A program made the translations under genes and the position numbers. The notes under the pieces were generated by a model, which made no database searches, had not been told where the DNA came from, and saw only the letters and a list, made by a program, of their open reading frames with translations. 64,000 nt of DNA from Selaginella moellendorffii. Taxonomy: Eukaryota > Plantae > Lycopodiophyta. This document shows, one piece after another, positions 9,097 to 37,500 of the stretch (position 1 is its first letter; each line of letters starts with the position of its first letter). The stretch lies in the NCBI RefSeq assembly GCF_000143415.4, contig NW_003314411.1, forward strand, positions 124,452 through 188,451, read 5' to 3'.

Positions 9097-9522
9097 GAAC
9101 CCTAAACTCTAAAAAGTGGATAAGCTTCGTCAGATATTTGGGCCGAAAACTATTCCATGGCATATTCCGGACTTCCTTAACTTTATTAAGCGTTGGCCAG
9201 TCGATAGCGTACGGTCAGGCCCACTTCGCTTTCCTCTCTTTTTTATCTTTCCTAGGGTTTCCGGTGGCGAGCTCCAGGGCGCGGCGGCCATTCTCTCTCC
9301 AGCTCCTCGAATCCTCGATGTTAGAGTAAGTGATTGCCATTCCCGGCGAAAGATCCAGCGATTAGTGACATAAGCGGCAGCGGCCAGGGATTCAGTACAG
9401 GGATTTCCAGATCATGTCGCCTCCAGGAGCAGCAGGCACTGCGTGACACGAATCGGGATCGGCAGGGCCGGGAATTCGCCACAGGCATCGCGATTGTGGC
9501 CCGGAGAGGAGATCTGGTCGCC

Positions 9523-10725
9523 ATGACGTATTTCCCTCTCAACACTGGCGCGAAGATTCCAGCCGTGGGTCTCGGGACTTGGCAATCCGATGGAGCGTCG
9601 TGTAAGCTAGCGGTCCAAACGGCGCTCGAGGTGGGCTACAGGCATTTGGACTGCGCGCACTTGTATGGCAACGAGATCGAGGTCGGGCAGGCTCTCGGCG
9701 CGGCTCTCAATGGTGGAATTCCCGGCCTCCGGCGAGAGGACGTGTTCGTCACCTCCAAGTTTTGGTGCACCACTGACACCTCCAAGCGGGTGGAGATGGC
9801 TCTCACGGTCTCGCTCAAGAACTTGGGGGTGTCCTACTTGGATCTCTATCTGGTGCACTGGCCGGTGAGCTCCCAAGTCGGGGACGCCACGGATCCGCCT
9901 GGGAATGCCACCACCGAGCTCAAGAAGATGTCCCGGAGGCTCAAGTCGATCTGGCGGGCGATGGAGGCGCTGGTGGAGAGGGGCAAGGTTCGTGCGATTG
10001 GAGTGAGCAACTTTGGGATCTCGCAGATACAGGAGGTGGTGAGCTTCGCGAGGATAATTCCAGCAGTCAACCAGGTGAGAGCTATCAGAACTTTACCAAG
10101 GACCGATCTAACTCTCTATCTTTCCTTGCCAAGGTTGAGCTCCACCCCTTCTGGCGTCAAGACGAGCTCGTCAAGTTCTGCCAGTCCAAAGGGATCCACG
10201 TCTCAGCGCACACTCCTCTGGGATTTCCTGGAGCCCGCCTTGGCAGCTCCGGCAATCTCAGCTCCATGGGAGACGACGAAGTGGAAACCCGGAGCCAACC
10301 CATAGTTTTCTCGAGGTCGCGGTCTGTGCACGCTCCCATGCTCGGCACTTCAGCGGTGGCTGTCATTGCCAATCGGCACCGCAAGACTCCGGCACAGGTA
10401 CTTTTTGGTTCTTTCTTTTCTTTCAGCCTCAGAGCCCCGTCGTTTTCCTCCGCATTGATTGGAAACACGACACGCCTTTGAATGGCAGGTCATCTTGCGG
10501 TGGGGCGTCCAGAGAGGAACGAGCGTACTCCCTCGCAGCCTCAAGCCAGAGCGAATCAAGTCCAACTTCGACATACTCAACTGGTCCCTTTCGGACGAGG
10601 ATTGGAACTCGGTGAACACGATGGAGCCGCAGCTCAGGCTCATTGTGAGCAACCAGTCGTATCTCGGCGAGAACGGGAGGCCACTCCAAGCCGTGAACGA
10701 GATGGACGATGTCGATTTCCACTGA
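9523..10725 (+). CDS. Aldo-keto reductase (AKR4C-like), 3 exons
   Basis: LNTGAKIPAVGLGTWQ, catalytic D/Y/K/H (HLDCA, LYGNE, TSK, VHWP), AIGVSNF, NQVELHP, TPAQVILRW. Confidence 0.93.
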
Positions 10726-16916: not shown

Positions 16917-17370
16917 TATAACATATATGATTATGGGATAAAAGTTGAATATATCGTTACATTTTTAAAACTTCAGATAAAATAATCATTAAAGGTTTTT
17001 TTATCAAATACTTACCCTTTTTCAATTGCTTAAGAAGATAGAGATAAAGTACACTATATGGGGTATCAGAGCAAATAATATGAGTATTGATTAGTAACTA
17101 TTTAAAATATAATATATCTTTGAGTAAACTATATTCTTACTTTTATATTGAGCATTTACAAGTATATTCTTTGTCTTGTAGGACATCCACTAACAGAATA
17201 ATCCATTGTGTAATTGGATGATTAGTTGTTTTATATAAATTAACTAATCTATATATTGGAAGGATTGATAATTTCAATGTGGAAATGGAAGTGTTAATTC
17301 CCCTTAGCTCAATAAAGGTTGTTAGTAAATAAGCACATTAAAATTGCTAAAAGGGAGGTGAGTGTAACAC
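16917..17370 (+). mobile_element. Degenerate TRIM copy (same family as 33899-34598)
   Basis: LTR-like segment, PBS GGTATCAGAGC (~17060-17072), homologous internal part, PPT AAGGGAGGTGAG then TGTAAC. Confidence 0.65.
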
Positions 17371-17379
17371 CTCCCTAAA

Positions 17380-17601
17380 AATTTATTAAATTTTTCATGT
17401 TACTTTAATCACTTAACCATGCCTTTGACTACTTAGAGAAGTCTCACTCCAACCTTTATATGCCCTTATCCTAACTTAAGGCATTTATTAGCCTTATGAT
17501 TTCAAAACCACACCAATTTTGCATTTGGTTTAAGTGCTCTATATGTTTAGTCCCACTTTGGACACCCAAATGTACCACTAATGTAATGGTTTCTTATGCT
17601 A
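17380..17601 (-). mobile_element. Degenerate LTR fragment (same family as the LTRs at 30654 and 36987)
   Basis: Colinear similarity to 30660-30880 (ttaaattt.cat...cacttaaccat...gtaccact...ttatgcta). Confidence 0.6.
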
Positions 17602-18814
17602 TAGAAAGCTCTATTTCGTTAAAGTGGGATTTATTCAGTAAAATGGGACTAGGTACAAATTTTCAAGTATTTGAAAATGACGTGAAATTATATGTTTTTT
17701 GTCCAGGGGCTAGACATATCTGGGGCATGGTGACTAGCGCGGTGACTTTATGTCCAAACTGAGTCCATCTGGTTGTATAATAAATCTCATTGTCAAGGTG
17801 AACAAGCCGAATCTGAAGCTAAAGAAGAGCGATGGCATGCGTGCACACACTATTTGTTTGTTCATTGAGCGTGTGGTGAACTTTCCAAGATGAACGTCAT
17901 TCCTATTAGCCAGATATATCACTTAATGGTGAGAACATTTAGATATTATTCAATGTTATCTTTTTCTAACGAATCTAATTGTGAAGGTGTAGCAAGAGGC
18001 ATTGCTAGTCTGGAGAAGTCATTTAACTCATTTGACCACCCTTAGTGTATTTTCATGAAACTAAATAACATTCATATTATTAAGGAATTTCTCTAGTACC
18101 TTTTTTTTACGACATAGAGGCTTGCATTTCTTTCAAAGGTGATTTAGTAAAAGGCCTGAGGGCACATGCCATTCTATTTCTCAGACCGGTATTAAGATAT
18201 ACTAGTGCAAAGGGAAAAAGGTATTTGGTGATCAAGTAAATGGCATGAGGGCACACGCCATTATAAGCCTAAGCGCTAGTGGACACCTCCTTTTTGGTAC
18301 TCTCAGCGGTACTATCATCCTTCTCCGGGTTAGTTGTTTTGCTTTGGATTGTTGTCTCTGACGTTACTGGGGCGTTCTCGATAGTTGTTAATATTGCTGT
18401 TTGTTCAGAAAAATGATCACCTGGAGTATAGTACGGGGAGTTTGGAAGACTTATATATTCTACATCTTCACCTATCTCCTTCTCCGTCTCCTTTTCTGCC
18501 TCACTTACAGATTTTGTGCTTGCCATGAGAACGCTCTTCACCCTAAAATATGGAGTTCGTTGTGTTATAAAAGGAAACCAACACACACGCTGCAAGGGAA
18601 TGATGGTACATAAAGTACGTAAGCCCACAATATGGGTTTATGTGCCATTAATATGGGCCACACGCCATATTATTAGATTTATGCACGTGTGATTGGTAAA
18701 TGCATATGTCACATCATCTTTGTTTTACCTTACACACTATATCAGGCCTCCTCTGATTCAGATTCGGATTGTTCACTTTGAAATAAAATACATTAGAAAC
18801 TTAGTAAAGGAATA

Positions 18815-21800
18815 TTAATGAATCTCACCTTGAACCCGGGTTATGAATGCTCTTGCTGCATCTCTTGTATGGTCTGGCAAGGTGATGGTGGCACTTTGCT
18901 TCCGCATCCAACCATGCACAACATTATCCACCGATATGCTCATGCTGGGATCCCTTGGATTCAGCACCCATCTCTTTTCTAGGCAATCCTTCGTATATCC
19001 GGAACTTGGCTTGAACCACTCCACAGTTACATTGAAGGAGTTAGTTTCCGCGTCCTCCTCTGCATCAGTGATGTAGCGCCCCACCCATATCATTTGTTTT
19101 TTATTACTGGGTCTGACAAGCACGACCATTCCTTTGCAGACCTGTACTGGATTGAATGCTGAATCCGGCTTCTTGTTCCTCGGCCCACAATAGTGATCCT
19201 CAACATCGTTATCTGTCACTGCATTTCCAGACGACATTGTTCCGCTACTATCTGGTGCTCTGGGTTCTGGCCAAAAGGACTCTTCCAATTCTTCATATAC
19301 AACCGGCCCATTTTGGATAGCAGATATAATCTTCTCCCAGTATTCGAGCAAAGGCTTGCACCTCTGAAAATAGGATTCTCCACCAAACACCAACCCCCTC
19401 TTCCAGAAGGCAATATGCTGTCTAATCCCGGCCACTATACTTTCCTGGTCTTTGAGTCCATCCGGGTGCATCGGCCGTGGGGAACCCTGAGGAATCATAG
19501 GTTCCCCAGTTATGGGATCTCTCTTGAAGAGTTCAATGCCGTCCACTGGCAGCCACACTGTGTCCCATTCTCTCATCTTGTACCTTATCACTGGAGCACC
19601 GTCACACATGCTGAAATGAAACTGAAGAGGCTTGGAGTGGCCAATCAGCGTTTCGGATCCGTCCTTGATGTAGCCTCTTACAAACCCCTTAAAGTCTGGA
19701 ACCTCTGTCAGAAGTGCAGCTTCAACAGTGCCTTTGATGCAATTTTGGAATTCATCGTAGAGTTGTGGGAGGGTGAGGACATTGGATCGCCGGAGGGACT
19801 CTGCCAGGTGACTGAACATGGCATCGACGTCTTCATGAGTGTGCCCAACCATGAGAAAGCCAAGTGTAACCGTTTCAAATATGCCTTTGGCAACAAGCAT
19901 CGCCAAGTACGCGAAGACGTACATGTTTTTGTTCTCACTGCCAGCATTGTCTGTTTGGAGCAGAAGATGGGGTGGAAGGCCACATCGGCCGCAAGAACTT
20001 CCTTGAGATTCTGCTTCGTTTGGATGAGGCTGTGCATTCACCGGGCGACCAGCCTCGTCGGAATGGCATGAGGCCTCACGTGATAACCCTACAATCTGAC
20101 GGCCAACATATTCACTGGGATGGCATGGGGCCCCACGCGATACTGCAAGCCTTTGCTCCTCCTCCAGCTGAACCCTGTATGGGGTTCGATCGACAAGGGC
20201 CTTATGCAAGGGTTGGCCGTTCAGCTCAGTCTGCGCACTTTGCAGAGACCTTAAGTGTTTTGCTAGGGACGCAATCATCATGTTTGCACCCCCGCCACCC
20301 CATAGAGGTACAAAGAAGTTCCCATAGTTCTGGGCACCATGCCCATGAGCGATTATGCCAAACAGAGACACAGGCAACTGCATGGATGAAGAGATTGCCT
20401 TGGGGGCAGGATTGAGTCGAGGTAAGCACGTCTTTTTCTGGTCCATTTTGTCGTGGATGATGCAGAGGTAAGAGTCAGGTCTCTCCATGGAGAGAATCCT
20501 GTTATGATAATATGCAGTCCTGCAGCTTCTTTGCTCGATGTTGTGGTCGAGCCGCCTTCTAACCAATGTCTCTCGCTCTTGAGCGCTGCAAGAATTCTTC
20601 GACAAAGCCATTTTGATAGCAGTGCACTCGTCACACTTTGAAAAGCTGGAGTACTTTCCTATACTCACATCCCTGAACCTGTTGCTCCATAATCTACTAA
20701 ATCTAGATTGGCTCAGCTTCCTGTAGCCATTACTCTGGAGTTCCCGATTCACAACTTCCAATATGGCCCCCTTGGTATACATGGAAGGGAGAACTCGTTG
20801 GGTGTCTTGTGTTCCATCTTCCAAGAGGCGGGTTTTATGTGGTTGCTGCTCGCTACATGTCTCAACAAACCTCTTGAAGATTGCCTCTCCATATACAACA
20901 TGACCCCTGGTTTTGTGCGTACCGTCGTTCCCATGGACTGCCTGTTGAACCCTTTGTTCCTCGAACTCAGTTTTGATTCTGTAGAATGTGGTTCGAGGGA
21001 CTCCATAAATGATTCTCCATGCCTTCATGTAGACCAAACCCCTTTGGAAGACCATGCCCCCCACCTGATGTTCTGAAGCATCAACAGATGACCGTAATGC
21101 CTCATACACAAAATTGCGAGCTGCCTTCCAGGACAATGTCTTGTATCTTGCTCTCTCCTCTTCAATAGCATCCCAATCAGCATGTTGACAGCAGCTCCTC
21201 TTGCAACAAGCAACTGTCGAGACCATTCGAACCTCCATCGCCATTTTCTGCCTTTTCGGTTCGTTGCTCAGATCCCTTTGGCTGCGCTTTAGGAAGGTGT
21301 ACTTTCTTTTCCCATGAAGAGATGTTCTGTCATCAGTTGTAGTGGTGTTTGATTGTGAATCCTTCACATTCTCAAACACTAAGTGCCTCAATTTCCACCG
21401 CACAATGCTTCCAATAGTTAGACTGTTTTCTTCTGTGTCAACAACCTCTAAAATCGCAACTCCAATATCATCCCAGCCCAATTCTTGATAAGCAACCGCA
21501 TCTCTTGGATCGACAACTGTGGCTAAGCCCTCAGCTACCACCTCCCCCTCGGGGTTGTTTAGAAACACCTTCGCCTGAATCCATGTAGCACGGTTCTTAA
21601 GATCCACGGAGGGAACATGCGTCGCACTTGCGCTGTCCCCAACATCTGCTTTCTTTTGAAGGTTTTTCAAGGCAACAACAACATTTACCCCGACGACCCT
21701 CTCTCCTCGTTCAATAGCAACCATATTCCCATCGAAGACAGTCTCTACTGATACAGCAGCATTGCCTTCCCCAAACCTTTGACAGTGTATAACAAAGTTC

Positions 21801-21883
21801 CGATCCATAGACACAAGGGTCCCTTTTGCAACTCTCTTCCCACCATTCAAAATGTAAACCTTTTCCCCAACCCTGAAGGCCAT
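18815..21883 (-). CDS. Sola-type DDD transposase, 1022 aa, intact ORF
   Basis: Motifs KCDEC, CIIHDKMDQKK, LLLQTDNAGSENKN, GFLMVGHTHEDVDAMFS; a possible splice donor near the 3' end could extend the C-terminus. Confidence 0.88.
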   Translation of the reverse strand: MAFRVGEKVYILNGGKRVAKGTLVSMDRNFVIHCQRFGEGNAAVSVETVFDGNMVAIERGERVVGVNVVVALKNLQKKADVGDSASATHVPSVDLKNRATWIQAKVFLNNPEGEVVAEGLATVVDPRDAVAYQELGWDDIGVAILEVVDTEENSLTIGSIVRWKLRHLVFENVKDSQSNTTTTDDRTSLHGKRKYTFLKRSQRDLSNEPKRQKMAMEVRMVSTVACCKRSCCQHADWDAIEEERARYKTLSWKAARNFVYEALRSSVDASEHQVGGMVFQRGLVYMKAWRIIYGVPRTTFYRIKTEFEEQRVQQAVHGNDGTHKTRGHVVYGEAIFKRFVETCSEQQPHKTRLLEDGTQDTQRVLPSMYTKGAILEVVNRELQSNGYRKLSQSRFSRLWSNRFRDVSIGKYSSFSKCDECTAIKMALSKNSCSAQERETLVRRRLDHNIEQRSCRTAYYHNRILSMERPDSYLCIIHDKMDQKKTCLPRLNPAPKAISSSMQLPVSLFGIIAHGHGAQNYGNFFVPLWGGGGANMMIASLAKHLRSLQSAQTELNGQPLHKALVDRTPYRVQLEEEQRLAVSRGAPCHPSEYVGRQIVGLSREASCHSDEAGRPVNAQPHPNEAESQGSSCGRCGLPPHLLLQTDNAGSENKNMYVFAYLAMLVAKGIFETVTLGFLMVGHTHEDVDAMFSHLAESLRRSNVLTLPQLYDEFQNCIKGTVEAALLTEVPDFKGFVRGYIKDGSETLIGHSKPLQFHFSMCDGAPVIRYKMREWDTVWLPVDGIELFKRDPITGEPMIPQGSPRPMHPDGLKDQESIVAGIRQHIAFWKRGLVFGGESYFQRCKPLLEYWEKIISAIQNGPVVYEELEESFWPEPRAPDSSGTMSSGNAVTDNDVEDHYCGPRNKKPDSAFNPVQVCKGMVVLVRPSNKKQMIWVGRYITDAEEDAETNSFNVTVEWFKPSSGYTKDCLEKRWVLNPRDPSMSISVDNVVHGWMRKQSATITLPDHTRDAARAFITRVQGEIH

Positions 21884-23178
21884 TCTGAAAGTGCAGAAAA
21901 GAAGTTAAGACCATACAAAAAATGATTGGAGAATGGCTTAAATCATAACATACCAAACAACCTCAATAGCATGAGGCCACATGCCATTATTCAAACATGC
22001 TATTGACACCCACGTGAAATTTTGCATTCACAAAATTGGCATGAGGCCTCATGCCATCTTGATATACACATAGCTGCAGGCATGTAAAAACATACATGAC
22101 AATACGCTAGCCATGAAATTACAAGGGCCCAAGATGGCATGTGGCCTCATGCCATTTCTAAATGTGGTCCTAAGCCATTCCATGGTGAACATACCAAGAA
22201 GCACAAGTGCCGAATATCAAGAGGAAGCGGTAGCCACACCAAAGACAATGCCGCTCGCAACACCGCAACTACTCGTAGTGCCGCTCGCAACACCGCAACT
22301 GCTCGTAGCGCCGCTCGCACAAACTGCCACTCGCATAAACTGCTGCTCGCAATGGCGCTCGCAATGCCGCAACCGCTCGTAGACGCATAAACCACAGCCC
22401 ACAACGCCGCTTACACAAGCAGCGCTCACTGCGCTTAGCGGAACCAAGAACACGGCGCACAAAAATGATAGACCTAGGAATGAGTTCGAGAATTCAAAAA
22501 TAACACACGCTTGAATGTCACATCAAATCCTCTGACAAACCAGATCTTATGACTCCTCTGACAAATTTCAAACTGAGTAGCTTCTAGACTTTGCTATCGG
22601 AGGTTGAACTTTGTCACATCATATCCTTGCCTCGATCCAGCTGTGCCATGTCAGTGATTCGAACTTTGCCATGCCATGTCAGCGATCCGCGCCAAGATTA
22701 TTCGCCGTGTAAAGGAATAATTATGCTCTGTGTGTACGTCCATTTATGGCAATATAAGGCCACACGCCATTCAAAGAATAATGCTAGTCGAGCATTTTTT
22801 GGTGCATTTTTGGGTTCAAAATTGCATGAGCCCACACGCTATAAAGTTTACCTGTACCAAAAATAGAAACAGCTTTATTTACTTGGGAATTTAAGTGGTT
22901 GAGGCATTTTTAAACTTACAAACACATGCCCTACTTACATTCCTTTGGTTGCTTAAAATTCAAAAATATTATAAACCTTTCTTTTTGCATTTTCAATGTT
23001 TTCAATTATGGTTTTTGATTTTCGCAGGACCAGCCTAGTAATCTATTTGCATCCCGTCATGTTTATAGCTAGCTTTCGTTTGTCCCCTTCGCTAGCCTGA
23101 GATACATCTGCTCGGCATCTGCCTCTTACAGCATTTGCCCAGAAAGGGCATCTTTCTTCACGCAGCATTTGCCACATG

Positions 23179-23211
23179 TTTAGGGTTTAGGGTTTAGGGT
23201 TTAGGGTTTAG
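23179..23211 (+). repeat. Interstitial plant telomeric repeat (TTTAGGG)4 TTTAG
   Basis: Directly visible between the two divergent transposon genes. Confidence 0.9.
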
Positions 23212-24036
23212 CAATTCAGTAGCTTGATAAACATGCAAATATAGAACTTGATGCAAAATCCTTTGATATGTCACAATGCCCCTAGGACTATAAACACATT
23301 TCAATAGAGAGGGTCCTTTCATTTCGCTATAATATTGATTTGAGAGAAAAATAGAAACAGATAGAATTTCTTTATTTAGCTGAACATCTGCCATTTTTGG
23401 AAATACAAGATGCTTTGGAATATCCAATCATGCATGGTATAAATATAGCGAGGGTATTAAATGATATCCCAATCATGATCTTTCTTTTGGATTTCGCGTG
23501 CATGCAGTCCGAGGAATGATGACGTTGCGGATTTCTTTTGGATTTTGCGTGCTTGCATGCGCACGGCAATCCAGAAATTAATGGTGGCGCCCAAGTCCGA
23601 GGAATGATGACGTGGCGGGATTACCAACCGTTGTGACATTTCGCGCGTGTGAGGTTAGGTTTTGCATTTTGCTTCGTACTCGCGCTCGCACACTCGTGCT
23701 CCCGCTCGCATCGCGCTCCCACTCGCGATCACGCTCACTTCTCTACAGGTTTCTCGTGTGCATCGGCGTCCACTCGCGCTTGCATCACACTCGCGCTCGC
23801 ATCGCGCTTGTGTGCATCGGCGTCCACTTCAAGACACACCCAGTTTGTAACTTCGCCGCCAACTCCGCCGCCCACTCCGCCACCCACACGCAGCCCACTT
23901 GGCGTCCCGGGAGATTTCAGCGCCACTCTCCAACTGTAAGTGGCAGAGTAGCCTTGTTGCTACGATCCGCTGCACACACAGTGCACATTCGCCAGCGAGT
24001 CCGGCCTCAATTGTCACGGCCTCCATTCGGCTTCAA

Positions 24037-27000
24037 ATGGTAATTCTTTTAGGCCAAGTAGAAAATGGCATGAGGCCACATGCCATTCAGTAGCAACATT
24101 GGCATGCACCGATTGGGCTCTTGAGTGCAGTCCGGTTACAGATGGCGTGTAGCCTCACGCCATCTTAGGATGCAGCCTCAAGACATCTGATGCAGTGGTG
24201 AATGGCGTGTGGCCTCACGTTATTTCCAGCTGCTAGCTTTTCATCTGTCAGCTCTAATTGTTGTGCATTTCTGAACAGGCGAGGAATTGCGTTCTTCTTC
24301 CAGCCACTGTCAATGTGGATGCAGAGAAGGGGGAGGAGCTCACCAGTTGGACTTTCGGGATGGAAGGCGAGGATCTGATGCTGTACAACACAGATGGTGG
24401 GAGAAAAGAATGTATGGGGATCCTCATCCAAGTGACAGACACTCCATGCAGTTCCATGCAAGAATATGGACTGGCACTTGTGGTAGAGATAGCATCCGCC
24501 TTCAAGATCCACCTTGCACATCCTAGCGGCTTCCCAGAGGGAGGCAGCGGCTATGAGGAATTCCTAGAGGGAGCTAAGGAGAGGTTGTCCAGGAGGCCCA
24601 CAATTTCAAAGACGCTGCGGGTCTATGAAGATCACATGGAATCCACGGACCTCACCTACGGCGATGTTCAAAAACTATATTCCAACATTGAGCCGTTGAG
24701 AGTGCCTCCAGTTCGCGAAGCGAAGGGGAAGGGGGTCGATCTGGAAACTACCTCGAAGCTGAAAAGGGTGGTCAAGCTCAAGCCGACATCCGACTCTGCT
24801 GCTCCAAAAAAGAAGCTACTCGGTGATGCCATTGCCTCGGGTTCGAACACTACACCCACCAAAAAGAAGAGCCGCAAAGAGCAGAAAGAGCAAGAAGAGG
24901 CAGCAAAAATCGTCGCAGATAATAGTACTTGTTACTATTCCAACAAAGTATATACAATCGACGTGAGCCGTATCGACATCCAAAGCAAATACAACCACAG
25001 GCTAGTATCTGATGAGTGGGTGGAGAAACTGAAGCAGAAGATGCTGGCAAGTTCAGTAACACCCGACATCGCAGACGTGATCCCCTACTACCAAACAATG
25101 AAGGGCGAGACGAGGTTTCCAAACTTGATCAATAGGAAGGTGTTGGACGATCAGAACATCTGGTTCTATGCCGTCTCCGGGTAGCATTCTAGCTTGGCGA
25201 TGCAAGAGATAGTTCTGGATATTATGGTGGGCGAGGAGGTGAAGAAAGTCTTCAAGACAAGAGTTGTCCGCCTGATAAAAGGCAACTCGCCCCTCCGATC
25301 TATCATATCCATCTCCCACGCGCAGAATGTCAAGCAAGAAACGTGCTACAAATCGGGTCTGCACGAGACATTGGCACGAACACGGAAGCTCTGGGTTCAA
25401 CTGAAGAAGCCACAAAAACCAGGACAAGGACGTGCACTAGCAACTAGCACCTGGCAGGTAAGCCTCGTTGCATGTGGCATAGCATGTGGCCTCACGCCAT
25501 TTCCATTGCAGGAATTCTCGAGTCTTCTCTCGAAAACACTGGGGGTCAATGACACACTCAGCATCCATAACATTCTACTCGCGACAAAAGTTGTTTTTAA
25601 CAAATGGGTAGATGTGCTGAGGAGGTACCATGACGGGGAGTTGCTAAACTCAATGGGTGTGGAGGACGGCCGGAAGCCCAATGATTTGAAGTTCAACGCT
25701 TTGCGTTTCTCGCGGTCTCTAGACGACGACGACCTTCTGACAGTGGCTAATGCTCTTCTACGTGGTGAGGTAGTCTTCAACAAGACCAAAATGACTCCCG
25801 GCCATATTGTGACATACGAGGACTTGTGCACGACTCTGAGAGCTCGTGCGCTATTGAAGGATTGGATCTTCGAGCAAGTGGCCGTGGAGAGGGTGAGCAT
25901 CGACATCACGCAAGAGATGATGGAAGAGCTGGACTTGTCAAATGATGACATCGACGAGTACGTGAAGGGGGCCCCCAAGTTCATCGATCTGCTGCGGGAT
26001 GCCACGAAAAGTAAAGCTGAGAAGTTGGATCAGTATCCAAATTTCATTAAGAGGGATGTCGACTGCCGGCTTCAGAAACAGCTCGACCCCGCAGCAGAGG
26101 CCTATCGAGAACCTTACCGGGTATACGTGAATTCGGATGAGGATCAAAGGTGGAGGAGCATCGTTTCCCGTGGAGATGAGCAGGTCAAGAGCATCTTTTG
26201 TGTGATGGACTTCACAAACGAAGAGATCACTCATGCAGACGAAGTCAGCTCCATCATTGACTTAATGGTGGGACTTGCGGAGGTGGAATCTTCAGTCCAC
26301 TATATGATCTACGATTCCGAATCCTATCACAAGTTCTGGAAGGCCTTGAACGAGGTGAAGGCTCAGTTGAAAGGCAAGGAGATGCGGGAGATCCATGGGA
26401 TAATGGCTAAGAAGAAGATATCGACGAATGTCCGCATCTTCACACTCGCCCTTGTTATTGGTCCTGCAGCAAAGTGGGACTGGAGTGACTTCCCAGCTTC
26501 GTTCGACAAGGCCGATCGAATTGATCTGAGGGAGGTCAATTTACCCGTGCCTGAGGAACTGAAGACGGCTATGGAGCTTTCGAATCCAAAGAAAGCTCCA
26601 GGTGCAGCATGGGAAATGCTCAGCTGGGTCTTCAACGCAATAGCGGGTGACACCAAGGGCAAATGCGTTGTCGAGTACAACTGCGGCGGACTATTCTTTC
26701 GAGCCGCACTACTCAAGGGTGTCCCGTGTGTTGCGGTGACAAACTCCATTGAAGAGGTGACTTCAATGGAGCATATAATTACAGTTGCCAAAGAAAAACA
26801 GTATCTTCTCTGCGAACCTGGTGAGTACGCACTTTAAGTTTAAATGTTATCTCACAAGCTCTGTATGCAGGAGCATGGCCACCCCCAGATGCTGAAACGG
26901 CGTTAACAGCTACTGATGTTAGGCCGAGCTCACAACCTGCACAAGGTAAGGTCACGTGAGGCCTCACGCCATTTTGATTATAGATCGTTGTGAATATTCA

Positions 27001-29615
27001 GACACGAGGACTGAAAAGCGCACTGGTGGCGCGTCGAAGAAGGACAAACAGACAAGCAATAGGAAAAAAGGAGGTACAAATTATATTTGCAATGGCGTGT
27101 GGTCTCATGCCATTCCTTGCAGGAGACACTTCTTCAAAGGCAAAACAGGCAAGCACCAGCCAAGCTCAAATTGACAGTGGTCATAAAAAGCGAAAACACG
27201 TTGGACAGTCGTCGGGATCAGAGGCGTTTGATTCGAAAAGGAAGAAGGGCAACGAAAAGATGATAGGTAATGCCTCGCGGTTATAGCGTGTGTGCTCATG
27301 CCATTCATTGCATATCAAGGGCTGAGTGAAAGGAGCCAGTCACCACCTCCTGACTCAGATTCCTATGGCGGACTCCCCTTCCCCAATCTCAATGGAGAGG
27401 TACAATGGATGAGGGATGCTTTTCAAGTCAGGGCCACGTTTTTCTCATCTCGTTGTCTTCGAAGGGTGCAAGAACGTGCAGAAACCATGTTAAGACAGTC
27501 GGGTGAGGATACGGTCCTAGGTTAAGCACTGAAACAGGCTATGGATGTCTTGTATTTTGAGATGGAGACTCGGCTAGATGATTTTCCCAAGATGGTCCTA
27601 GAAAAACAAGCCATCCAGCCTGAGCAGCCTATGGAAGAAATGCAGGAGGGGGATGAGGAGCCAAAGAAAGATAATGAGCAGGAAGAGCAGAAGGACGAAG
27701 AGGAGGACAAAGAAGAGGAGGACGAAGAAGAGGAGGACGAAGAGGACTTGGATGGTCCTCACAATGGTGACGATCACAATAACGACGATGACGATGATGA
27801 CGACGATGGCCAGCCTGAGGTGGCCAAAGAGCAGCGGAGGAAGGTCATACAAGACAAACCATCAGGTAAATAATAGTACATCCATTCCTAACCTTTTACC
27901 ATTTCTAACATTGTCCATGTAGGTCGCAGAAGAAATGGTAAGTAGAGATTATTCAGTTGAATTAAGATACAAACTCTAGCCTTTAGTGTCGAGGAAGGAT
28001 AGTGCCAAGCAAGGGTCGAAACGTATGTCCAATCCTTCAGAATCAGCAGTGTGCCCAATAGCAGTTGATGGTAAATACAGTATAGTCGATTCAATGTGCT
28101 AATGAGTTTGTTTTTAGTAGCTAGTAGGGAGGATACCATCTCAATCGAAGGGAGATATTTGGACATGCATATGGATCCGCCAGTGGACTCTACTTGCCTG
28201 CAAGAGTCATCAGAGCTGGTGGAGGCTACTATCCATATCAACGCCAAGCAAGCTGACCACGCTCCACTTGATGCTGCCCATACCACTGAGTCAATCTTGT
28301 CCACGTATCCAACTGACGGTGACCAGGCGCCATTGGACCCACATAAGGCCGCCCCAGCCGCCGAGCCGGTCGTATCCTCATTTCCAACGGACTCAACGTG
28401 TGCCCAATCGTCTGACTACGCGCCGTTGGAACCTCCCTACACCGCCCCTGCTGCCTGTTCGGTCATGTCCACTTTGCCAACGGAGGCACCAGCTGAAATG
28501 GCGTGTGATCACACGCCATCGGAACCACCCCATGCCACTGTTGAGCCAGTTGTACCAGAGTCTACAGCTGAAATGGCATGTGCCCACACGCCATCGGATG
28601 CGATTGACCCCACATTGCAGAGGAGAGTATTTCCGCCCTTCACGTTTCCTCGACCAAAACCCTCTGAACGACCATTGGGAGCACCATTCGCTAATATTGT
28701 AGATGGCAAAATTGACTTGTACCATTTTTTATGCTGACGCATTTCATTTCAGAGTCACGGCGAAAGTACTGTATCGTTTTTGATCTGAACGGTGTCCTTT
28801 TCTCCCATGAGCGTGGCTCGTCCTCGAATGTCACTGCACCCTCCAAAGCCTGCGGTCGCAAGTTGGTCAAAAGAGACAGATTCACATTAATCACACGGGA
28901 GAAACTGCGGGATCTAATAATAACCATGCGACACTTAAAACAGAGGGCCGGGTTCAATTTGCAATTGGGAGTTTGGACATCCATGATGCGCCACAATGCA
29001 TTAACGTTGTTACAGATGATGCACGATCAAACGCGAGTAATATTACCATTTGACTTTCTCCTAACGCAGGAGGATTGCTTGACTATGGTCCATGTGAGGG
29101 GTAGCAAGCCCATCTTCGTCAAGCCAGAGGCTGTAGTGATGAACTGGACTGCTAGGTCAAGTGAAATCCTCATCATCGATGACTCGCCGATTAAAACTGC
29201 AGCGAACACGCACACATATGCAGTGCACCCCATCTCTTGCAGTATGGAAACTAGGGAGAAGAAACCGTATGTTCTGGGGGACCTTGCAAAATGGCTTGAA
29301 GCGATGGTGATAGAGAACCGGCCAGTCCAGGAGGTGGCTGTAGAAATCAACCAAATGGCAGATGGAACGGTATATCAGAAGCCATTTGATCGGACAGACA
29401 CCAGTCATCATTTATGGCATGTATATTGTCTAGCCAAGCACTATCCGCATCTCCATAATCTGCTCAACCGGATGGGTTCTTCGACCACTGAACATGAGCG
29501 TGGACGTATTAGAGAAGAGATGGCATTACTATTGGGTTTAAATCCTGATAGTGTGGAGAGTGATGAAATTCCAAGATTATTGTATAGGCGTTGGAGGCAA
29601 AAAATAACAGTCTGA
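24037..29615 (+). pseudogene. Transposon cargo gene, 11 exons, ~1625 aa: ParB/Srx-like + degenerate N6/N4 DNA methyltransferase-like + acidic linker + FCP1/NIF HAD phosphatase-like; two nonsense codons
   Basis: Exons 24037-39, 24279-25457, 25512-26820, 26871-26945, 27002-27073, 27123-27266, 27320-27865, 27923-27937, 27987-28070, 28118-28705 and 28753-29615 splice in one frame (last intron GC-AG). In-frame stops TAG 25182 and TAA 27523. Motifs: IDVSRIDI..YNHRLVSDEWVEKL..FYAVSG*HS; VVEYNCGGLFFRAALLKG; IVFDLNGVL..ILIIDDSPIK. Confidence 0.75.
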
Positions 29616-30118
29616 GATGGCATGTATTTATTTAAAAATGTAACTTATTATGGCATGGGGTTCCATGCCATTGTATTAATATTAAAAGACAATTCTTTGA
29701 GAGGATTTGCATTATACTAGAAGTGTTACAGCATGTTATTGGAAGTCTACGAAGTTGTTTTATTAATAAGGGGAAAGTAAAGATTGAATGGGGACTTGGG
29801 CTCCACCTAGACTCGGAGCAACTAAGCCAATATTAAAAGGATGGAAAGAAATTGGACGACGATGACCAGGAGAAGAGAGAGGTGAAGCAGTGGCAAGGGG
29901 AGGAGAAGTGATTGAGTAGACATTTCCTTGTTTAAAATAAAATGGCATGTGCCTCAATGCAGTTGAATTTTGTTATATTTATATACTATATAAAGGTTTG
30001 GAAACCTTATTTTACAAGTGGGATAATGACAATTCCCACTTTAACGAAATAGAGCTTTAGAATAATAAACTATGGTATAGATAGTTTTAGGCTACCAATG
30101 AGATAATATAAATAAATT

Positions 30119-30650
30119 ATAACACATCTTATCTCTCTCTCTTTAAGTCAACTGGAAAAGGGGTAATTGCTTGATGAAAAAGCCTTTAATGGCTATTTTA
30201 TCCCCATTTATCCCCCAATGTTCCAAGGATCCACAGTGATAGTATATCCAAATCTTATCCCATGATCACATGCGCTACACTCACCCCCCCCCCCCCCCCC
30301 AAATTATGTGAAAAATATCAAGGTCCTTATTGAATATTGACTATATTGAGTTAAGGGGAATTAACACCTTCATTTCCACACTAAATTTACCAATCCTTCT
30401 ATTGTGTAGATCAATTATTCCATGTGAAGCAACTAGTCATCCACCCATACCGTAGTCCTACGGTGGATACTTTTCGTCCGTGGATACTCCACATAAAAGG
30501 AAGGACGTACGCATGGATGCCCAATACGTACGATTTCAAATTTATGGGTAGGAATATACTTGCTTAAAGTGTATATTATATTTTTAAATAGCCACTAATC
30601 AATAGGAATCTAACCTATGCCATTTGTTCCGATACAACTATAGCACACCC
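30119..30650 (-). mobile_element. TRIM copy with truncated 5' LTR
   Basis: LTR ...GCGCTACA, poly-C PPT, internal region and PBS-like TTCCGATAC, homologous to 33899-34598. Confidence 0.7.
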
Positions 30651-31660
30651 TATTGTAAGTGATTAAATTTTCCATTCTACTTTAGTCACTTAACCATACC
30701 TCCGACCACTTGGAGGAGTCTCACTCACAACCTCCAAAAGTCTTATTTTGGACTTAGAGACTTACTAGCCCCAAAAATGGTGTCCATGCCACTCAACCAT
30801 TGCACTTGGTCCAAGTGCTTCACGTGTCCGATCCCATGACCGACACTCTAAGGTACCACTGACATATTAACCCGTTATGCTAAGGCCATGCCCATTCACC
30901 TTGATCACACTGGTGGTCTATCACCACCTACATCATAGCCCCATCTCTCAAAGACTGGCCATCCGTCCAGGAGTAATCATCCCAGATCCACTCCTTAGCA
31001 TCCTTAGGATGCCTGCAAGCATGGTGAATAGCCTTCCCTAATATCCTTTTTCTGGTCCCCACCAAGTCCCTTTCTGCTCATGGCCATGTTTGCCAACACT
31101 GCCATTGGATTGAGGCCCACAGGCCCAACCACTAAGGCCCATGGTCCTCTGAGACTTCCTCACCACTTGATTGTATCCTTGGTCACTACACCAGAAAGCT
31201 ACTCCTCTTCCTTTCCACAGTTTAGGCATTTGGGACAACATTTTGGAATACTGTAGCCCTACGTGAGCCTCATAGGTACTCTCCCTGCTTTCCACCTTTG
31301 GGTGCTCTAGCCATGGGCTTAGAGCGAGGTTCTGTTAAGCCACACCAGGTATCCAAGTAGGTAGTGCCACCCACACTTGGACTGGGAGCATCGACCATTT
31401 AATCTCCCGGGGGAACTAAAGCTGGCTTTTGAACACTTCACAAAGCTACCCCGTTTGTCGGTTTGTATTCACTCTAACTTTGGACTTCCCAGTGGTTATC
31501 CCATCACCCAACACCTGGGTACAGCCTTTCTAGGACAAACTGGCATTTCCTAGCCAAACTGGCTCCACTGGAGTCCTCCCCCTTACTATACTTTTGGAGC
31601 TCACCAAACCCCCTAGGGTCTAGGAGACGAATGCTTTGGGCTTTCACCACCTCAGATTCA

Positions 31661-32020
31661 AACTCGGACTCGGACTCGGACTCGGACTCGGGCTTGGGCT
31701 TGGGCTTGGGCTCGGTCTCGGCCTCGGCCTCGGTCTTGGTCTTGGTCTCGGTCTCGGTCCCGGTCCCGGTCTCAGTCTCAGTCTTGGTCCCGGTCTCAAT
31801 CTTGATCTTGACTTTGGACTCCATCTCGGGTCCTTCTCGGACTCCATCTCGGATTCTATCTCGGACTCCATCTCGGGTCCATCTTGGACTCCATCTCGAG
31901 TCCATCTCGGGTCCATCTCAGACTCCATTTCGGTCCATCTCAGACTCCATCTCGGTCCATCTTGGACTCCATCTCGAACTCCATCTCGGGTCCATCTCGG
32001 GTCCATCTCGAACTCCATTT
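31661..32020. repeat. Hexamer (CTCGGN/CTTGGN) and GACTCCATCTCGG tandem arrays inside the LTR
   Basis: Directly visible; a decayed equivalent lies at 37975-38185. Confidence 0.85.
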
Positions 32021-33898
32021 GTGTCCCTTTTTTAGAGACTCACTTATTGCTTGCTTTGTGCTTATTCCTTGAGCACTTCGTTGGGAGTTCCACTCCCGCT
32101 CTTGACCTTTCAAATCGGAGCTTTTAGTCCAAACGTGTTACGTTCGTTTGGCTTTCGCTTTGGCCACTACCAAGTGGCACCCTTTCGGCTCCACTTTAGG
32201 GCCTAGGGATTTTGTGTCACACAACTCCACTACCCATAGATGAAGTTTGATGTCCTTATCGAACGGTAAACTATTTTATAAAGTAATACCAACATGTATT
32301 ATCCTTTCCATTCTTAGCACCTCACCAATATTCGTCAATGGTTTGATACCGAAGGGTCACCATGCCTTACTCATCCTCTAAGGAGGATAGTCTCTCCAAC
32401 TTCGAGACTGATTGGACCACTTGTCGTGGTTCTCTCCTTTTATTGGTTTAGTTTTCACTAAACCTGTTAGAAACACCATTTATATCTTAATTTCACTACT
32501 CTTTCTTGAGTAATTTTAATTTTCATTAATATAACCTTTGCACTTTGGAACTTTTACTTTTGATTTTTTTAAGTCAATTTCCTAAGTGTCTCTGACATCT
32601 TGCATTGCACATATTGTGCAACTCCACTTCCACATTCTAGGAAATTCTCTACTTGAGGGCACCATCATCCTTTCTTCTATTTCATGCCTCCTTGGGCACT
32701 AAGTTTCAGTTATCATAATTTTGTGCTAGGGTTGTCAATGGTCCTATCATTTAGCTATCTTACCGCTCCCTCCTTTGGAGCTTCCACTTTTGCCAAATCG
32801 GAGCAATTAGGAATCCATTCTTGAAAACACCTTGCCTTTCCCACAATTCGTTAGGCCCCAACACATTAGTGTTCTTGGCCTAACTTTGCCTTTTGGATTC
32901 TTTCCCATGATTCCCATGGCTCTTGTCTTAGCTATTGGTCTTTTGCTCCTATCTTTTGATAGTTGCCCCCAACAACATAGGATTGCTATCTCCATTCTCA
33001 AAGTATCTTTTCGGTTCTATAGCAAAGATTTTGCTTGCCAAGTCCAAAGGGTATTTACCCCTAGTATGTCTCTTTATCATTTTCTGCTATGGCTTTATTC
33101 ATAGCCCAATTTAGTGACCCTCCCATGGGTCTCTTATAGAGACTACTTTCTTCGGACTCACCATATTATCGCATGGACATAGCTTATTTCCCTTAAGTGC
33201 TCTTCCTATTTGGTCATTTTGACCAAGCCACACCATCATAAACAGTTCAAATCAACACTTTGAACCAAGAATTTTATTCCATAGCCAACCAAAGACCTTA
33301 TCCTTATTTAGCCATAAGATCACCTAGTGATTTCACTTTAACACCTTAATAGAGTTGCCCAGAGGTACTTGGTCTTCTAGACATTCAAGTTGTTGACTAT
33401 GACCCCGGGGGCATCCCCCACACTTGGCAGTGCACCCAAGCCAGCCCTTACAGCCAAGGGTCCATAACAACTGAGATTAAGTGTCCCCATCTCATTCACC
33501 ACGTCCTTGGTGCCACTTGCACCAAGGTGTTCAAGTTAAATGTGCCAAGCTTTTGCACTAAGCAATTTAACTGTGCATCACGACTCCGAGGCATCCCTTG
33601 CTTGGCGGTGTGCCCAAACCAATCTCCTCACTAAGAGTTCATGACCACTGAAAAATGAGTGTCCTCATATTCCAAACCATCACCACGCCCTAGTGATTTG
33701 GGACTCGAACTCAAGCACTAGAGGGTTGAGACTCGAACCCAACCTCCGTATATGCATCTACGGACAACATTGCCTAGGATGCCTGGCGTGACTCCCCACG
33801 CCGATGCACCAACTTAAATTTAAAGTGCGTTATAGATCACAACTTAGGAACCTAGTTTCTTCACACTGCCAAGTCCTCTCACTTGACAAGTCTGTGAT

Positions 33899-34598
33899 TG
33901 TAGCACACATTATCTCTCTCTCCTTAAGCCAACTGGAAAAGGGGCAATTGCTTGATGAAAGAGCCTTTAGTGGCTATTTTATCTCCATTTATCCCCCAAG
34001 GTTCCAAGGATCCACGGTGACAGTATATCTAAATCTCATCCCATGATCACATGGGCTACACTCACCCCCCCTTCAGAGATGTCAATGTCCTCATTGACTA
34101 TTGACTAACAACCCCTACTAAGCCAAGGGGAACCAACACCTTCATTTCCGCACTGAATCTACCAATCCTTCCATTGTGTAGACCAGCTATTCCATGTGAA
34201 ATAACTAATCATCCACCCGTACGTGAAGCAACTAATCATCCACCCGTACCGTAGTCCCATGGTGGATACCTTCGTCCGTGGATACTCCACACAAGAGGAA
34301 GGACGTACGCATGGATGCGCAATACATACGATTTCAAATTTAGGGGTAGGAATATACCTTGCTCAAGGGTATATTATATTTTAAGTAGCCACTAATCAAT
34401 GGGAATCGAACCCGTGCCATTTGCTCCGATACCAACTGTAGCGCACCTTATCTCTTTCCCCTTAAGCCAACTGGAAAAAGGGCAATTGTTTGATGAAAGA
34501 GCCCTTAGTGGCTATTTTATCCCCATTTATCCCCCAAGGTTCTAAGGATCCTCAGTGACAATATATCCAAATTTCATCCCATAATCATATGCACTACA
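33899..34598 (-). mobile_element. Intact TRIM (700 bp)
   Basis: LTRs 33899-34060 and 34437-34598 (TGTAG..CTACA), PBS TGGTATCGGAGC on minus, PPT GGGGGGTGAG on minus, 5-bp TSD GTGAT on both sides, no ORF. Confidence 0.92.
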
Positions 34599-37500
34599 GT
34601 GATCATGCATGGACTCCTCCATGCTTGGCCCCACGGTCCACCCCTTTGAAGTTGACCCCTTCAACTAGTGTATTTGTTCCCCCAACTTGCTAATCTCACT
34701 TAACAAGTCATTCGACCACCATAACATGGTTCATGCATAAGCGTGAAAATCCTTAACCATCAACTTTCGTTTAAAGCCCTCTCTTTGAACACTTGGGAAC
34801 TACTTTCCTAACCTTGATAGCCTCGCCTCTTAGCAAGCTTCACGACCATACTTTTGCTGCGCCACTTTGATTCCGCACGTTCTATAAATATTTACATTTG
34901 GCTTTGAACGATACTAAGCTATCTAGAATTGTCTTTGGGAACCTTTAAAGGAACTCTGTCCCTTAGCTTGCTAAGACCTCTCCTTTCACAAGCTTTTAAA
35001 TTGCCATATGGTCTAACACGGATAATTCCATGCTTTACTCTTTATGGCATCACAGTTGCTAGTAACAACCTACTTGAACACCCACTTGATTCTCCACTCC
35101 CAGTTGGCATAACCACCCTTGGTTATGCAATTTGATTCCTATGGTTTGGTTCTATCCCCTTACTACTTGCTTTTGGCCTCACATCTTTCCTTCGGTTATT
35201 CTCCTCCAGACAAAGAGGATAGCTTTGCACTTTCTATTATGCCATAGCAAGTATTCTTAGGGATGAACGTATTCGATAGCCTAAGGAGTGGTTCCTCAAT
35301 CCGGGCATGCTCAACTTATAATCCCATACACCGTGGTTAACGTTGCTACTTATGGGCTTTTATATGCCCTTCACTAGACTTGCCACAATTCCATTTTGGC
35401 CTTGTCCAATTCGGGTAGATAGTCTTCTCTTGTCTCTGCAACCTTAAACATTTGGATAGCACCTTCTATCCATCATTCGTTAAGGACTTAATCCCTTGGG
35501 CCTCATCTATTGCCCTCGCGACACTAAACACTACCTCTTAGTGTTTTAGAGTGTTTGAGTGTCCCAATAATGGCCTCCTTGACAATGAGCATTTCCTTTT
35601 ATAACATTGACTTACTATATCGCAACATAAGTAATTTATCCCTGATAAGGGTATATTTAACTTCTTTATGCTATTAAGAAGTCTTGGGTAGCTACCTTCT
35701 ACCTGTTTAACCAATTACTTTATACCTCTTGCTTAGTTGCTTCATAGTTGTCAAGTCTTACAACTCATTATTGGTGCTTCCACACCTCCATCATTATCTG
35801 GGTCACCACACTCTATCACATGCCTTCTAGCTTAGGATATGTCATTCTCATTTCCATTGGGATTCCTTTGGTAAGGGGTTTTTATAAACCCATCAACATA
35901 ACCTCAAAGTATCCTACCTTGGCACATTTGATGTCTCCACACCATCAGCTTCATGAGTCTACTTTTATGACACTTTACACTTGTGCCTAGGTCTTTGCCA
36001 AAACCAATTTAGTCGTTTTCTTATGCCAACTATCCGTTAGCACTACACTATAGTGTTCGCACATAACTCTGCACCAAAGTTGCTTCTTCTAGGAACACCT
36101 TTCCCACGACTTTAGTATGGCATATTCTACCCCCCATGAGATACCCACTGTTCTCATACTTGGATTTTATGATCCTCCCCATCCTCTGTGGGGCACAACA
36201 CACCTTAGTCCAAATGCTTCCATTAGTCCTTTAAAACCATTCCATGATTCCACTTAAGTCATTCAGCCTTTTGGACTTTTCCTAATCCCCCGACTTATAA
36301 GGTCTTATTTTTGAGGTGCCAGCTCACTAGAATACAACTTCATGTATTCATGTCCTACTCACAAGGACCATCTTTGCAAGTGCTACTCTGACACTTGATT
36401 TTGTTCTCTGGGGCCAATTTTTGCCCCTTATGACTACTTGTCCATGTGATGAGAATACCAACTCCTCCTCTGAGTGCACCCTTAACTCCTTGGGTTATTC
36501 CAACATTTATTAAAGATAGCCCCGGCTACCATTTCAAAGACTTGTGTCTTCTTTCGTATTTAACCTCCCGTGGTCATTACTTTTGGTCTCACATTCATGA
36601 GCACCAACCTCAACTATATGAAGATAATCTTGTGACTCCTTTATTGCTTTGGAGTCTCTATCTTTCTTGTGATCCTAACTATAGTTGTTTACCACAACTA
36701 CATTAGCCAGTTTGCTAAGTCAAACACTCATTTGGATCACATCCTCAACTCTCTGAGGAAACCCTTATACTGTTCCCAAGATCCCAAAATCGTTCCCTTA
36801 CTGGCCCTTTTCTATCCACCACATCGCGCCCAAGTTCACGCATGAACTTGAGTGGAGAGCTATGTCCTCTCGACATGTTACTCCTCAAGGATAGGCCCAC
36901 TCCTAGGACCTTCCGATGCTAACATCAATGGTGATATACTTGAGCACCAATAAAAGTCGAAATAAGGAATAACTCCGATACCAAGTTGTAAACGACTAAA
37001 TTTTCCATTCTACTTTAGTCACTTAACCACACCTCCGACCACTTGGAAGAGTCTCACTCACAACCTCCGTAAGTCCTATTTTGGACTTAGGGACTTACTA
37101 GCCCCAAAAATGGCGTCTATGCCACTCAACCATTGCACTTGGTCCAAGTGCTCCACATGTCCAATCCCATGACTGACACTCCAAGGTACCACTGATATAT
37201 CAGCCCGTTACGCTAAGGCCATGCCTATTCACCTTGGTCACACTAGTGGTCTGTCACTACCTACATCATAGCCCCATCTCTCAAAGACTGGGCCATCCGT
37301 CCAAGAGTGATCATCCCAGATCCACTCCTTAGCATCCTTAGAATGCCTGCAAGCATGGGGAATAACCTTCCCCAATATCCTTTTTCCGGTCCCCACCAAG
37401 TCCCTTTCTGCTCATGGCCATGTTTGCCAACATTACCACTGGATTAAGGCCCACAGGCCTGACCATTAAGGCCCATGGTCCTCTGGGACTTCTTCACCAC

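Follow-up and report, generated by a model that had tools for sequence, protein, structure and literature searches.

The 64,000-nucleotide stretch of Selaginella moellendorffii DNA analysed here (hereafter the window; contig NW_003314411.1) contains a transposon of 12,452 bp, at positions 17606-30057, that carries two head-to-head genes, gene A on the minus strand and gene B on the plus strand, together with all 20 copies of a dispersed palindrome. Gene A encodes a transposase and gene B a protein with a predicted ParB-like domain. From sequence patterns and structural models, we consider it fairly probable that the palindromes are parS-like sites bound by the ParB-like protein of the element itself, likely serving to mark the element as self and possibly to counteract its silencing.

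A preliminary description of this DNA had reported about 21 copies of a 20-bp palindrome with conserved arms, a variable centre and differing flanks. The repeat is real. Allowing at most 2 mismatches, the 20-bp pattern TGGCRTGW-N4-WCAYGCCA matches the window 18 times where 0.13 matches would be expected, and none of 100 shuffles contained more than one; 17 of these matches lie in 18152-29670 and one at 33784. The unit proved to be 22 bp instead of 20, with the outer AT...AT kept and the consensus ATGGCRTGW-GGCC-WCAYGCCAT. In its 22-bp form, ATGGCRTGW-N4-WCAYGCCAT, it is found 19 times in the element and not once in the other 51.5 kb when up to 3 mismatches are allowed, and 20 times inside and once outside with up to 4. 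A symmetric matrix derived from the 20 in-element copies scores all of them at 15 bits or more (9.5-36 in leave-one-out scoring), against 6.9 bits for the top site outside the element, so that the enrichment over both shuffled and flanking DNA is strong. Two one-armed remnants, near 18650 and 22749, make the earlier count a fair one. Between copies, mean identity is 77% in the motif and 28% in the flanks. Perfect inverted symmetry, previously noticed at 22037 and 28499, is indeed present in the copies at 22036 (inner 20 bp) and 28498, and in the copy at 29650 the 9-bp arms are fully complementary with the W position changed. The conservation of the arms was correctly described; the centre, in contrast, is itself constrained, since it reads GGCC in 9/20 copies, starts with G in 19/20 and ends with C in 18/20. 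Finally, miniature inverted-repeat transposable elements carry their own target-site duplication (TSD), whereas direct repeats of 4, 5, 8 or 9 bp beside the palindrome, searched at four offsets, were found at 0/20 copies; the palindromes are thus not such elements. Enrichment and lack of TSDs, the two points on which the preliminary description could have failed, both speak for it.

The boundaries of the element are given by a terminal inverted repeat (TIR) and a 4-bp TSD:

17602..17605, no strand: left TSD TAGA, the same 4 bases as at 30058-30061.
17606..17632, plus strand: left TIR, 24 bp perfect, 26/27, starting 5'-AAG.
30031..30057, minus strand: right TIR, ending CTT-3'.
30058..30061, no strand: right TSD TAGA.

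When the flanks are joined across the insertion, they match an older repeat at about 37.1-37.3 kb (67/104 and 25/47 matches); this gives moderate support for a clean insertion of the 12,452-bp element. Helitron, CACTA and Kolobok were excluded by termini, TSD and Pfam. The palindromes are distributed along the element, in relation to gene B and its introns and to the open reading frame (ORF) of gene A, as follows:

24037..29615, plus strand: gene B, about 1620 codons with ten predicted introns, an open chain apart from two stops.
24040-24278, 25458-25511, 26821-26870, 26946-27001, plus strand: predicted introns 1-4 of gene B.
27074-27122, 27267-27319, 27866-27922, plus strand: predicted introns 5-7.
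27938-27986, 28071-28117, 28706-28752, plus strand: predicted introns 8-10.
17832..17853, no strand: degenerate copy, 3' of gene A.
18151..18261, no strand: copies 18151 and 18240, a local duplication, 89 bp apart.
Within 20030..20143: copies 20063 and 20120, in the candidate intron or loop of the gene A ORF.
21966..22155, no strand: copies 21966, 22036 and 22134, upstream of the gene A ORF (intron or 5' untranslated region).
22200..24036, no strand: divergent intergenic region, with copy 22821 between genes A and B, the remnant at 22749, CG-rich short repeats and a CpG observed/expected ratio of 1.08.
24065..24223, no strand: copies 24065, 24142 and 24202, in predicted intron 1 of gene B.
25479..25500, no strand: one copy in the 54-nt intron 2 of gene B.
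26951..27304, no strand: copies 26951, 27092 and 27283, one each in predicted introns 4, 5 and 6.
28498..28594, no strand: copies 28498 and 28573, within a predicted Pro/Thr-rich exon of gene B.
29650..29963, no strand: copies 29650 and 29942 (degenerate), 3' of gene B.

If the gene model is as predicted and four copies are treated as coding, 16/20 palindromes are non-coding where 34% would be expected (P 3.5e-5). Seven copies occupy five of the first six predicted introns of gene B and the last four introns hold none. The copies had been said to cluster near both ends and around both gene starts, but the 9-11 clusters span the whole element, spaced more evenly than expected by chance (P 0.004-0.056, depending on the merge distance), and the farthest base from any palindrome lies at 923 bp.

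Are the palindromes read by a protein or do they act as folded nucleic acid? Selected hairpins or cruciforms were one of the two explanations first offered; as DNA cruciforms or RNA hairpins they might, for instance, aid the splicing of short introns. Of the seven copies that do fall in introns predicted for gene B, four are the only copy in an intron of 49-56 nt, and two copies are perfect while a third has fully complementary arms with a changed W. However, Watson-Crick concordance at the two variable arm positions (10/20 and 7/20) is close to the permutation means (9.2 and 7.5), no covariation beyond permutation exists at any of 11 pairs in the 20 copies, pairs across the arms are mismatched as A:C in 7/20 copies and as A:A or T:T in 11/20, and five predicted introns of similar size have no palindrome. 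The absence of covariation, together with a centre that is both conserved and self-complementary, fits two protein-read half-sites and not a hairpin, which leaves the folded structure very unlikely. The other explanation, a dimeric protein-binding site, is supported by conserved arms that vary independently and by the predicted ParB-like protein that the element encodes. The W positions are A/A or T/T in 11 copies; 9/11 of these have T-GGCC-T in the sense orientation of the nearer gene, a bias that suggests a slightly asymmetric, oriented site.

The candidate binder, gene B, has the following parts:

24927..25343, plus strand: predicted ParB/sulfiredoxin (Srx)-like N-terminal domain, with the motif F.A[IV]SGQH[ST] in the family.
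25512..26084, plus strand: all-helical conserved region after the ParB-like domain, candidate DNA-binding part.
26175..26790, plus strand: degenerate N4/N6 DNA-methylase-like region, where the predicted local distance difference test score (pLDDT) of the model is below 50.
28753..29615, plus strand: last exon, an NIF/FCP1-like HAD domain with the degenerate motif DLNGVL (Pfam NIF, E 1.4e-5).

The structural model, which covers the residues from 24900 and used 17 sequences, has a mean pLDDT of 56, rising to 73-89 across most of residues 11-140. Its comparison by VIA-align with 48,161 chains placed proteins of the ParB/Srx fold in all of the top 8 positions (Z 5.6-8.6), among them PadC (Z 8.6, root-mean-square deviation (rmsd) 3.3, 98 aligned), pNOB8 ParB (Z 8.0, rmsd 4.4, 198 aligned, residues 8-308) and KorB (Z 8.0, rmsd 12.4). 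Foldseek also ranked Noc and ParB at the top (best E 1.1e-3, probability 1.00), with KorB lower. In PHROG, the domain matches a single entry, annotated as a ParB-like partition protein (E 0.23), and searches of PDB sequences with the domain or its profile gave no ParB match. An invariant Asn (N143) stands behind the GxH motif at a distance like that of KorB N146, the conserved Asn of the hydrolysis helix in canonical ParB clamps, a correspondence by distance and not by aligned residues. A ParB/Srx fold is therefore what the model predicts for the N-terminal domain. As for the enzyme-like parts, DxDxT is the catalytic motif of NIF/FCP1 phosphatases; it is not present in the NIF domain of gene B, which reads DLNGVL, though Pfam NIF passes its cut-off. 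N4/N6 DNA methyltransferases use DPPY as catalytic motif, and a DPPY/SPPY-type motif is absent at the aligned position, which reads VMDFT in the window and IADLR in Selaginella. At the position of methylase motif I, the window has VVEYNCGG and the Riccia protein P0075 VLDFFSGG (Pfam N6_N4_Mtase, below cut-off). TSPPY is the N4/N6 methylase motif given in the available part of one source (10.1101/2021.02.12.428880). Judging from the model, the gene B protein probably works like a member of the ParB family, but we do not class it among the canonical ParB CTPases, nor among active methylases or phosphatases.

A full HMMER scan with gene B retrieved 12 proteins, 10 of which were kept, from liverworts, Selaginella and contigs; P0057 and P0058 were discarded as repeat-driven chance matches. 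Homologues are present in Riccia, Calypogeia and Selaginella. P0075 of Riccia fuses a ParB-like N-terminal domain with N6_N4_Mtase (E 5.8e-4, below cut-off) and NIF (E 1.9e-5). Four S. moellendorffii genes (P0055 and P0067-P0069, 379-451 aa) show the helical and methylase-like parts with no ParB domain, and are possibly domesticated or mis-annotated. Word-indexed protein searches with gene B found nothing, viral contigs contained no relatives of gene A or gene B, and no relatives of P0064 were found in phages. An ESM Atlas search returned streptophyte clusters only (0.85-0.86), which we take as a lead only. The introns of gene B are a predicted GT/GC-AG chain, in which intron 2 alone is supported by homologues, because these are without the corresponding 18 residues. 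We regard a GC intron that was scored at 28576-28620 as an artefact and do not count it. In a sequencing run guessed to be RNA, which may be DNA, contigs had no spliced joints and one spans predicted intron 6 unspliced. The two premature stops in the window copy, at 25182 and 27523, are missing from nearly all other copies in three runs.

We then compared the element with related loci, defined as the best 80 of 519 with related transposases, which are mostly decayed and in many cases represent the same site in different samples. Four other palindromes emerged, with 10-39 copies in the seed loci against shuffle maxima of 0-1 there and of 0-2 over all counts:

TTTGGCCATATGGCCAAA: 10 copies in L001.
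GAAAKCTA-N8-TAGMTTTC: 11 copies in L003 and 12 in L021.
ATYTRGTGGCCACYARAT: 39 copies in L009, and present in many other loci.
CCCACGGGTG-NN-CACCCGTGGG: 10 copies in L017, with a variant in L060.

At least three copies of one motif were present in 39/80 loci, and the window motif occurred at most once per locus. In L009, 39/39 palindromes lie within an 11,273-bp TIR element with the 4-bp TSD ATAT; in L080, 8/10 lie within 4,644 bp. In a quick 58-row tree with weak deep support, the type of motif tracks the clade to which the transposase belongs. L004, L006, L054 and L078, which are short and mostly coding, have no palindrome family above shuffles; none was found de novo in L002, with 2 copies of the L003 motif, or in L005, with 1. 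Two further features of these loci are three tandem NIF/FCP1-like domains at L009:2431-5220 (minus strand), against one in the window, and palindromes upstream of the transposase at L001:526-1832, whose spacing of about 141 bp is near the nucleosome core length.

This recurrence bears on two other explanations. The palindromes might be no more than neutral leftovers, produced by local duplication in tandem or by a very small mobile unit, and have no binder today; neighbours 57-98 bp apart, flanks shared by some (18151/18240, 28498/28573), the units repeated in tandem in L009 (24 bp), L017 (47 bp) and L001 (about 141 bp), and single sites deleted in minor variants of the family all point that way. 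A conservation of 77% against 28% in the flanks, the lack of TSDs, the return of the same pattern in five lineages with five sequences, and a family majority that has the consensus base at 27285 make us regard this as quite improbable. Still more improbable is that host transcription factor sites were captured to drive the genes of the element. It is true that clusters flank both gene starts and that single copies contain G-box-like or TCP-like words, but there are zero copies in the 51.5 kb of flanking DNA, host genes included, and each lineage has a different palindrome of 18-24 bp.

A more serious candidate is the transposase itself:

18815..21883, minus strand: gene A main ORF, 1022 aa, DUF7869 transposase.
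20030..20143, minus strand: stretch of 114 nt in gene A, bounded in frame by GT and AG, that contains copies 20063 and 20120; predicted candidate intron, or else a low-confidence loop.

The ORF matches DUF7869 in Pfam (E 1e-41) and has 52 homologues, one of them a Riccia protein; the low-confidence stretch with its two palindromes may be an intron. In the predicted structure (mean pLDDT 77), an RNase H-like core aligns to integrases, IstA and Mos1 (Z 7.6-8.2, rmsd 3.0-6.6), with invariant acidic residues at D478/D481, D645 and E684/D685/D687, and a helical region resembling a helix-turn-helix (HTH) aligns to the DNA-binding parts of CENP-B and Mos1 (Z 6.6-7.3). One homologue gives a weak TNP1/EN/SPM match (E 0.023). 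The available text of PMC10741241 characterizes Sola by a 4-bp TSD, TIRs of 11-1124 bp and a DDD/E transposase. The element has a 4-bp TSD, a 27-bp TIR and a predicted RNase H-like DDD/E core; by these traits, and not by Repbase sequence grouping, it probably works like Sola (Sola1-like). A full-text literature search for DUF7869 returned 0 papers. The C-terminus of the model (residues about 909-1022, 18815-19150) shows a BAH/chromo-like fold resembling SHL, EBS, AIPP3 and the DNMT1 BAH domain (Foldseek E 0.007-0.02, VIA-align Z 6.8-7.7), and the N-terminus Tudor/KOW-like domains; such reader-like domains make a chromatin-guided choice of targets possible.

If the transposase bound the palindromes, for end synapsis or for activation of its own transcription, gene B would do something else. 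The HTH-like region and the TNP1/EN/SPM match would be in line with this, as would the clusters near both ends in L009, L080 and L017, the agreement between motif type and transposase tree, the fact that most palindrome-bearing loci show a transposase and no detectable gene B, and the sequence-specific activation by the AtMu1 transposase described in the available part of a 2026 preprint. Nevertheless, the terminal 40 bp of the element, where a transposase must bind, contain no half-site closer than 3 mismatches, while introns in the middle of the element, up to 6 kb from an end, are filled with sites. In addition, the related loci were chosen by their transposase, so that its presence there is by construction, and symmetric targets fit a ParB-like protein more directly. 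We therefore hold binding by the transposase to be unlikely, and the gene B product to be rather probably the binder.

Several observations weigh against gene B as the source of a parS-like system. Pfam and NCBIfam ParB models give no match in gene B or its homologues, and the Foldseek search with the gene B model has no match at E 0.001. The phosphate-binding motif of ParB is GERRxR, and mutating the matching Arg in KorB abolishes both the binding of CTP and the action over long range (PMC11790492, available text); GQH[ST] replaces GERRxR in every gene B homologue covering this position. The helical region aligns to pNOB8 ParB and KorB at high rmsd only (4.4-12.4, residues 8-314), and residues 173-203 of the model are of low confidence, so that a sequence-reading HTH is no more than a candidate there; the transposase, for its part, has the predicted DNA-binding-like region mentioned above. 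Phage ParBs that partner DNA-modifying enzymes are described as having no obvious DNA-binding domain, and seem not to need the CTP residues (PMC13229309, available text). Remnants of gene B were detected at 6/80 related loci, the ParB part at one and the NIF part at five (L009-L011, which are one site, L022 and L037), and L003, with 11 palindromes, has no gene B match in 10 kb upstream. The motifs of the related loci were moreover derived from the very loci in which they were counted. Searches of the 80 loci by tblastn with gene B and its homologues gave no match, nor did a two-sequence NIF profile until it was seeded with L009 fragments. In favour of gene B, the single ParB-part remnant, in L041 (E 0.013, no decoy match), is head-to-head with the transposase and has six palindromes just upstream, a layout as in the window.

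The state of the window copy, too, weighs against this reading. Relative to the family majority, 31/40 listed differences are C-to-T or G-to-A, 12/31 in CG context against 338/1869 available, which indicates a decayed copy that has apparently not been protected. At 27285, the majority bears the consensus base, a difference that restores a palindrome arm. Sequencing runs of just 2-5 million contig letters contain about two thirds of the words of the element, and 3.8 kb of it is matched by 16,598 and 46,106 contigs in two runs of one sample, values that represent depth and not copy number; from the words in these small runs and the contig depth we infer a high-copy family. Minor variants of the family have deletions of about 60 bp, at 26957-27025 and 27275-27341, that start in or just before a palindrome, with several junctions and filler bases; these are the two deepest of the joints listed, and their cause may be breakage at the sites or, in each case, a single old deletion. 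At 26915 and 27164, other copies of the family contain additional sequence that is absent from the window copy, as seen in 27 gap letters of one contig and in a long loose end. One variant deletion joint, 24412-24499, is filled with telomere-type repeat letters, and a short telomere-type array lies between genes A and B. Joins between palindrome copies among loose contig ends were taken as cross-mapping and not as recombination.

How might such a system work? A dimer of the gene B protein would recognise both half-sites by means of the helical region that follows the ParB domain, load at clusters about every 1-2 kb, and then coat or bridge the element. The coated element would be marked as self and, most likely, remain open to transcription in the face of methylation by the host, a role that VANC plays for VANDAL. 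The methylase-like and FCP1-like domains may act as binders or adaptors and not as enzymes, because their catalytic motifs are lacking. Protein and motif would change in step, so that every family would come to have a palindrome of its own, and sites would be seeded where coding constraint is low; local duplication followed by decay of the flanks would explain their spread, as described for VANC motifs. Provided that gene B is the binder, anti-silencing is by analogy somewhat the likeliest purpose, with end-bridging and KorB-like repression open as alternatives. CTP-driven sliding of the protein is doubtful. A complete eukaryotic parS/ParB system, with intron-seeded sites every 1-2 kb, nucleotide-gated spreading of a clamp on chromatin, and dead folds of a methylase and of a phosphatase for the C-terminal domain of Pol II serving as readers, is more doubtful still; were it true, it would be a second, independently evolved sequence-specific anti-silencing system and a programmable protein-palindrome code. 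More generally, recognition by the gene B protein would mean that bacterial centromere-type recognition has been reused on plant chromatin, might help to explain the very high copy, and would offer natural pairs of long-site DNA binders. Moss or liverwort models make it possible to test both anti-silencing and the choice between cognate and non-cognate sites.

The element also contains, on the minus strand at 18269..18526, a small acidic ORF of 85 aa, which is a candidate third gene or last exon. The window as a whole is plant nuclear DNA, as PPR, GRAS and gypsy-type domains indicate. Around the element lie nested, decayed repeats resembling long terminal repeat retrotransposons (16925-17590, 30116-38000 and 56809-62600), with gag, reverse transcriptase, RNase H and integrase ORFs at 56809-61280. 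Host-type genes, namely a PPR protein with E motif, an aldo/keto reductase, an NAD-dependent epimerase and a GRAS factor, occupy 5501-7843, 9334-10305, 43785-45290 and 45664-47583.

Several known systems resemble this element. ParB/parS, Noc/NBS and KorB/OB share with it the predicted N-terminal fold followed by a helical region, and symmetric sites on the encoding replicon. The sites of Noc and KorB are dispersed on their replicons. The differences are a eukaryotic, intron-bearing gene, GQH[ST] instead of GERRxR, and a longer site (22 bp). parABS also has a linked ParA, whereas a Pfam scan of the long ORFs of the element, short ORFs not being scanned, yielded only DUF7869 and NIF. KorB uses its sites for gene control at a distance (PMC11790492), and eukaryotic methylases are known to have come from phage ParB-methylase loci (PMC4738411).

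VANDAL elements are Mutator-like. Like VANDAL/VANC, the window element has a short family-specific motif enriched in introns and other non-coding parts, but it differs in its DUF7869 transposase, 4-bp TSD and ParB-like accessory protein. The VANC motif, moreover, is a 9-bp non-palindromic word in one orientation, for which binding and demethylation are proven, whereas the sites described here are predicted. VANC motifs are family-specific, lie in non-coding regions and spread through local duplication (PMC5735166), and VANDAL has been named the sole transposon known to bind and modify its own sequence (10.1101/2025.02.11.637652).

The closest relatives in design come from algae. In Ectocarpus, Sola1-1_Ec32 carries a ParB-methylase gene opposite the transposase, with AACCG termini and a 4-bp TSD, and the ParB-methylase is hypothesised to bind and modify the sequence of its own element (PMC12477816); the word 'palindrom' was not found in the main text of that paper. 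Both are giant TIR elements with a 4-bp TSD (biased to end in A in the alga) and a 5'-AA terminus, and in both an accessory gene opposite the transposase combines ParB-like and N4/N6 methylase domains. Sola1-1_Ec32, however, belongs to a brown alga and measures 21.5 kb with a 282-bp TIR, against a land plant and a 27-bp TIR here, and the window element adds an FCP1-like domain, degenerate catalytic motifs and a candidate target. In the red alga Bostrychia, PAG3 of Plavaka (EnSpm) has a ParB-like domain, with tandem inverted-repeat arrays beside the gene as hypothesised targets (10.1101/2025.02.11.637652). It is likewise a transposon accessory protein with inverted repeats of its own element as proposed targets, but it belongs to another transposase superfamily and fuses ParB to a 2-oxoglutarate oxygenase, and its repeats are tandem arrays by the gene, whereas those of the window are single sites spread through introns along the element. 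Among the top full-text literature matches, a set that excludes subscription papers, Repbase Reports, Iyer 2011 and the Bostrychia supplements, none describes such elements from land plants, or palindromes that are both dispersed and specific to a family. The element is thus best seen as a variant of the known transposons with ParB-domain accessory genes; in the algal cases action on the element's own sequence is hypothesised only, and here a candidate target is explicit, in the form of the 22-bp site and four alternative sites in sister lineages.

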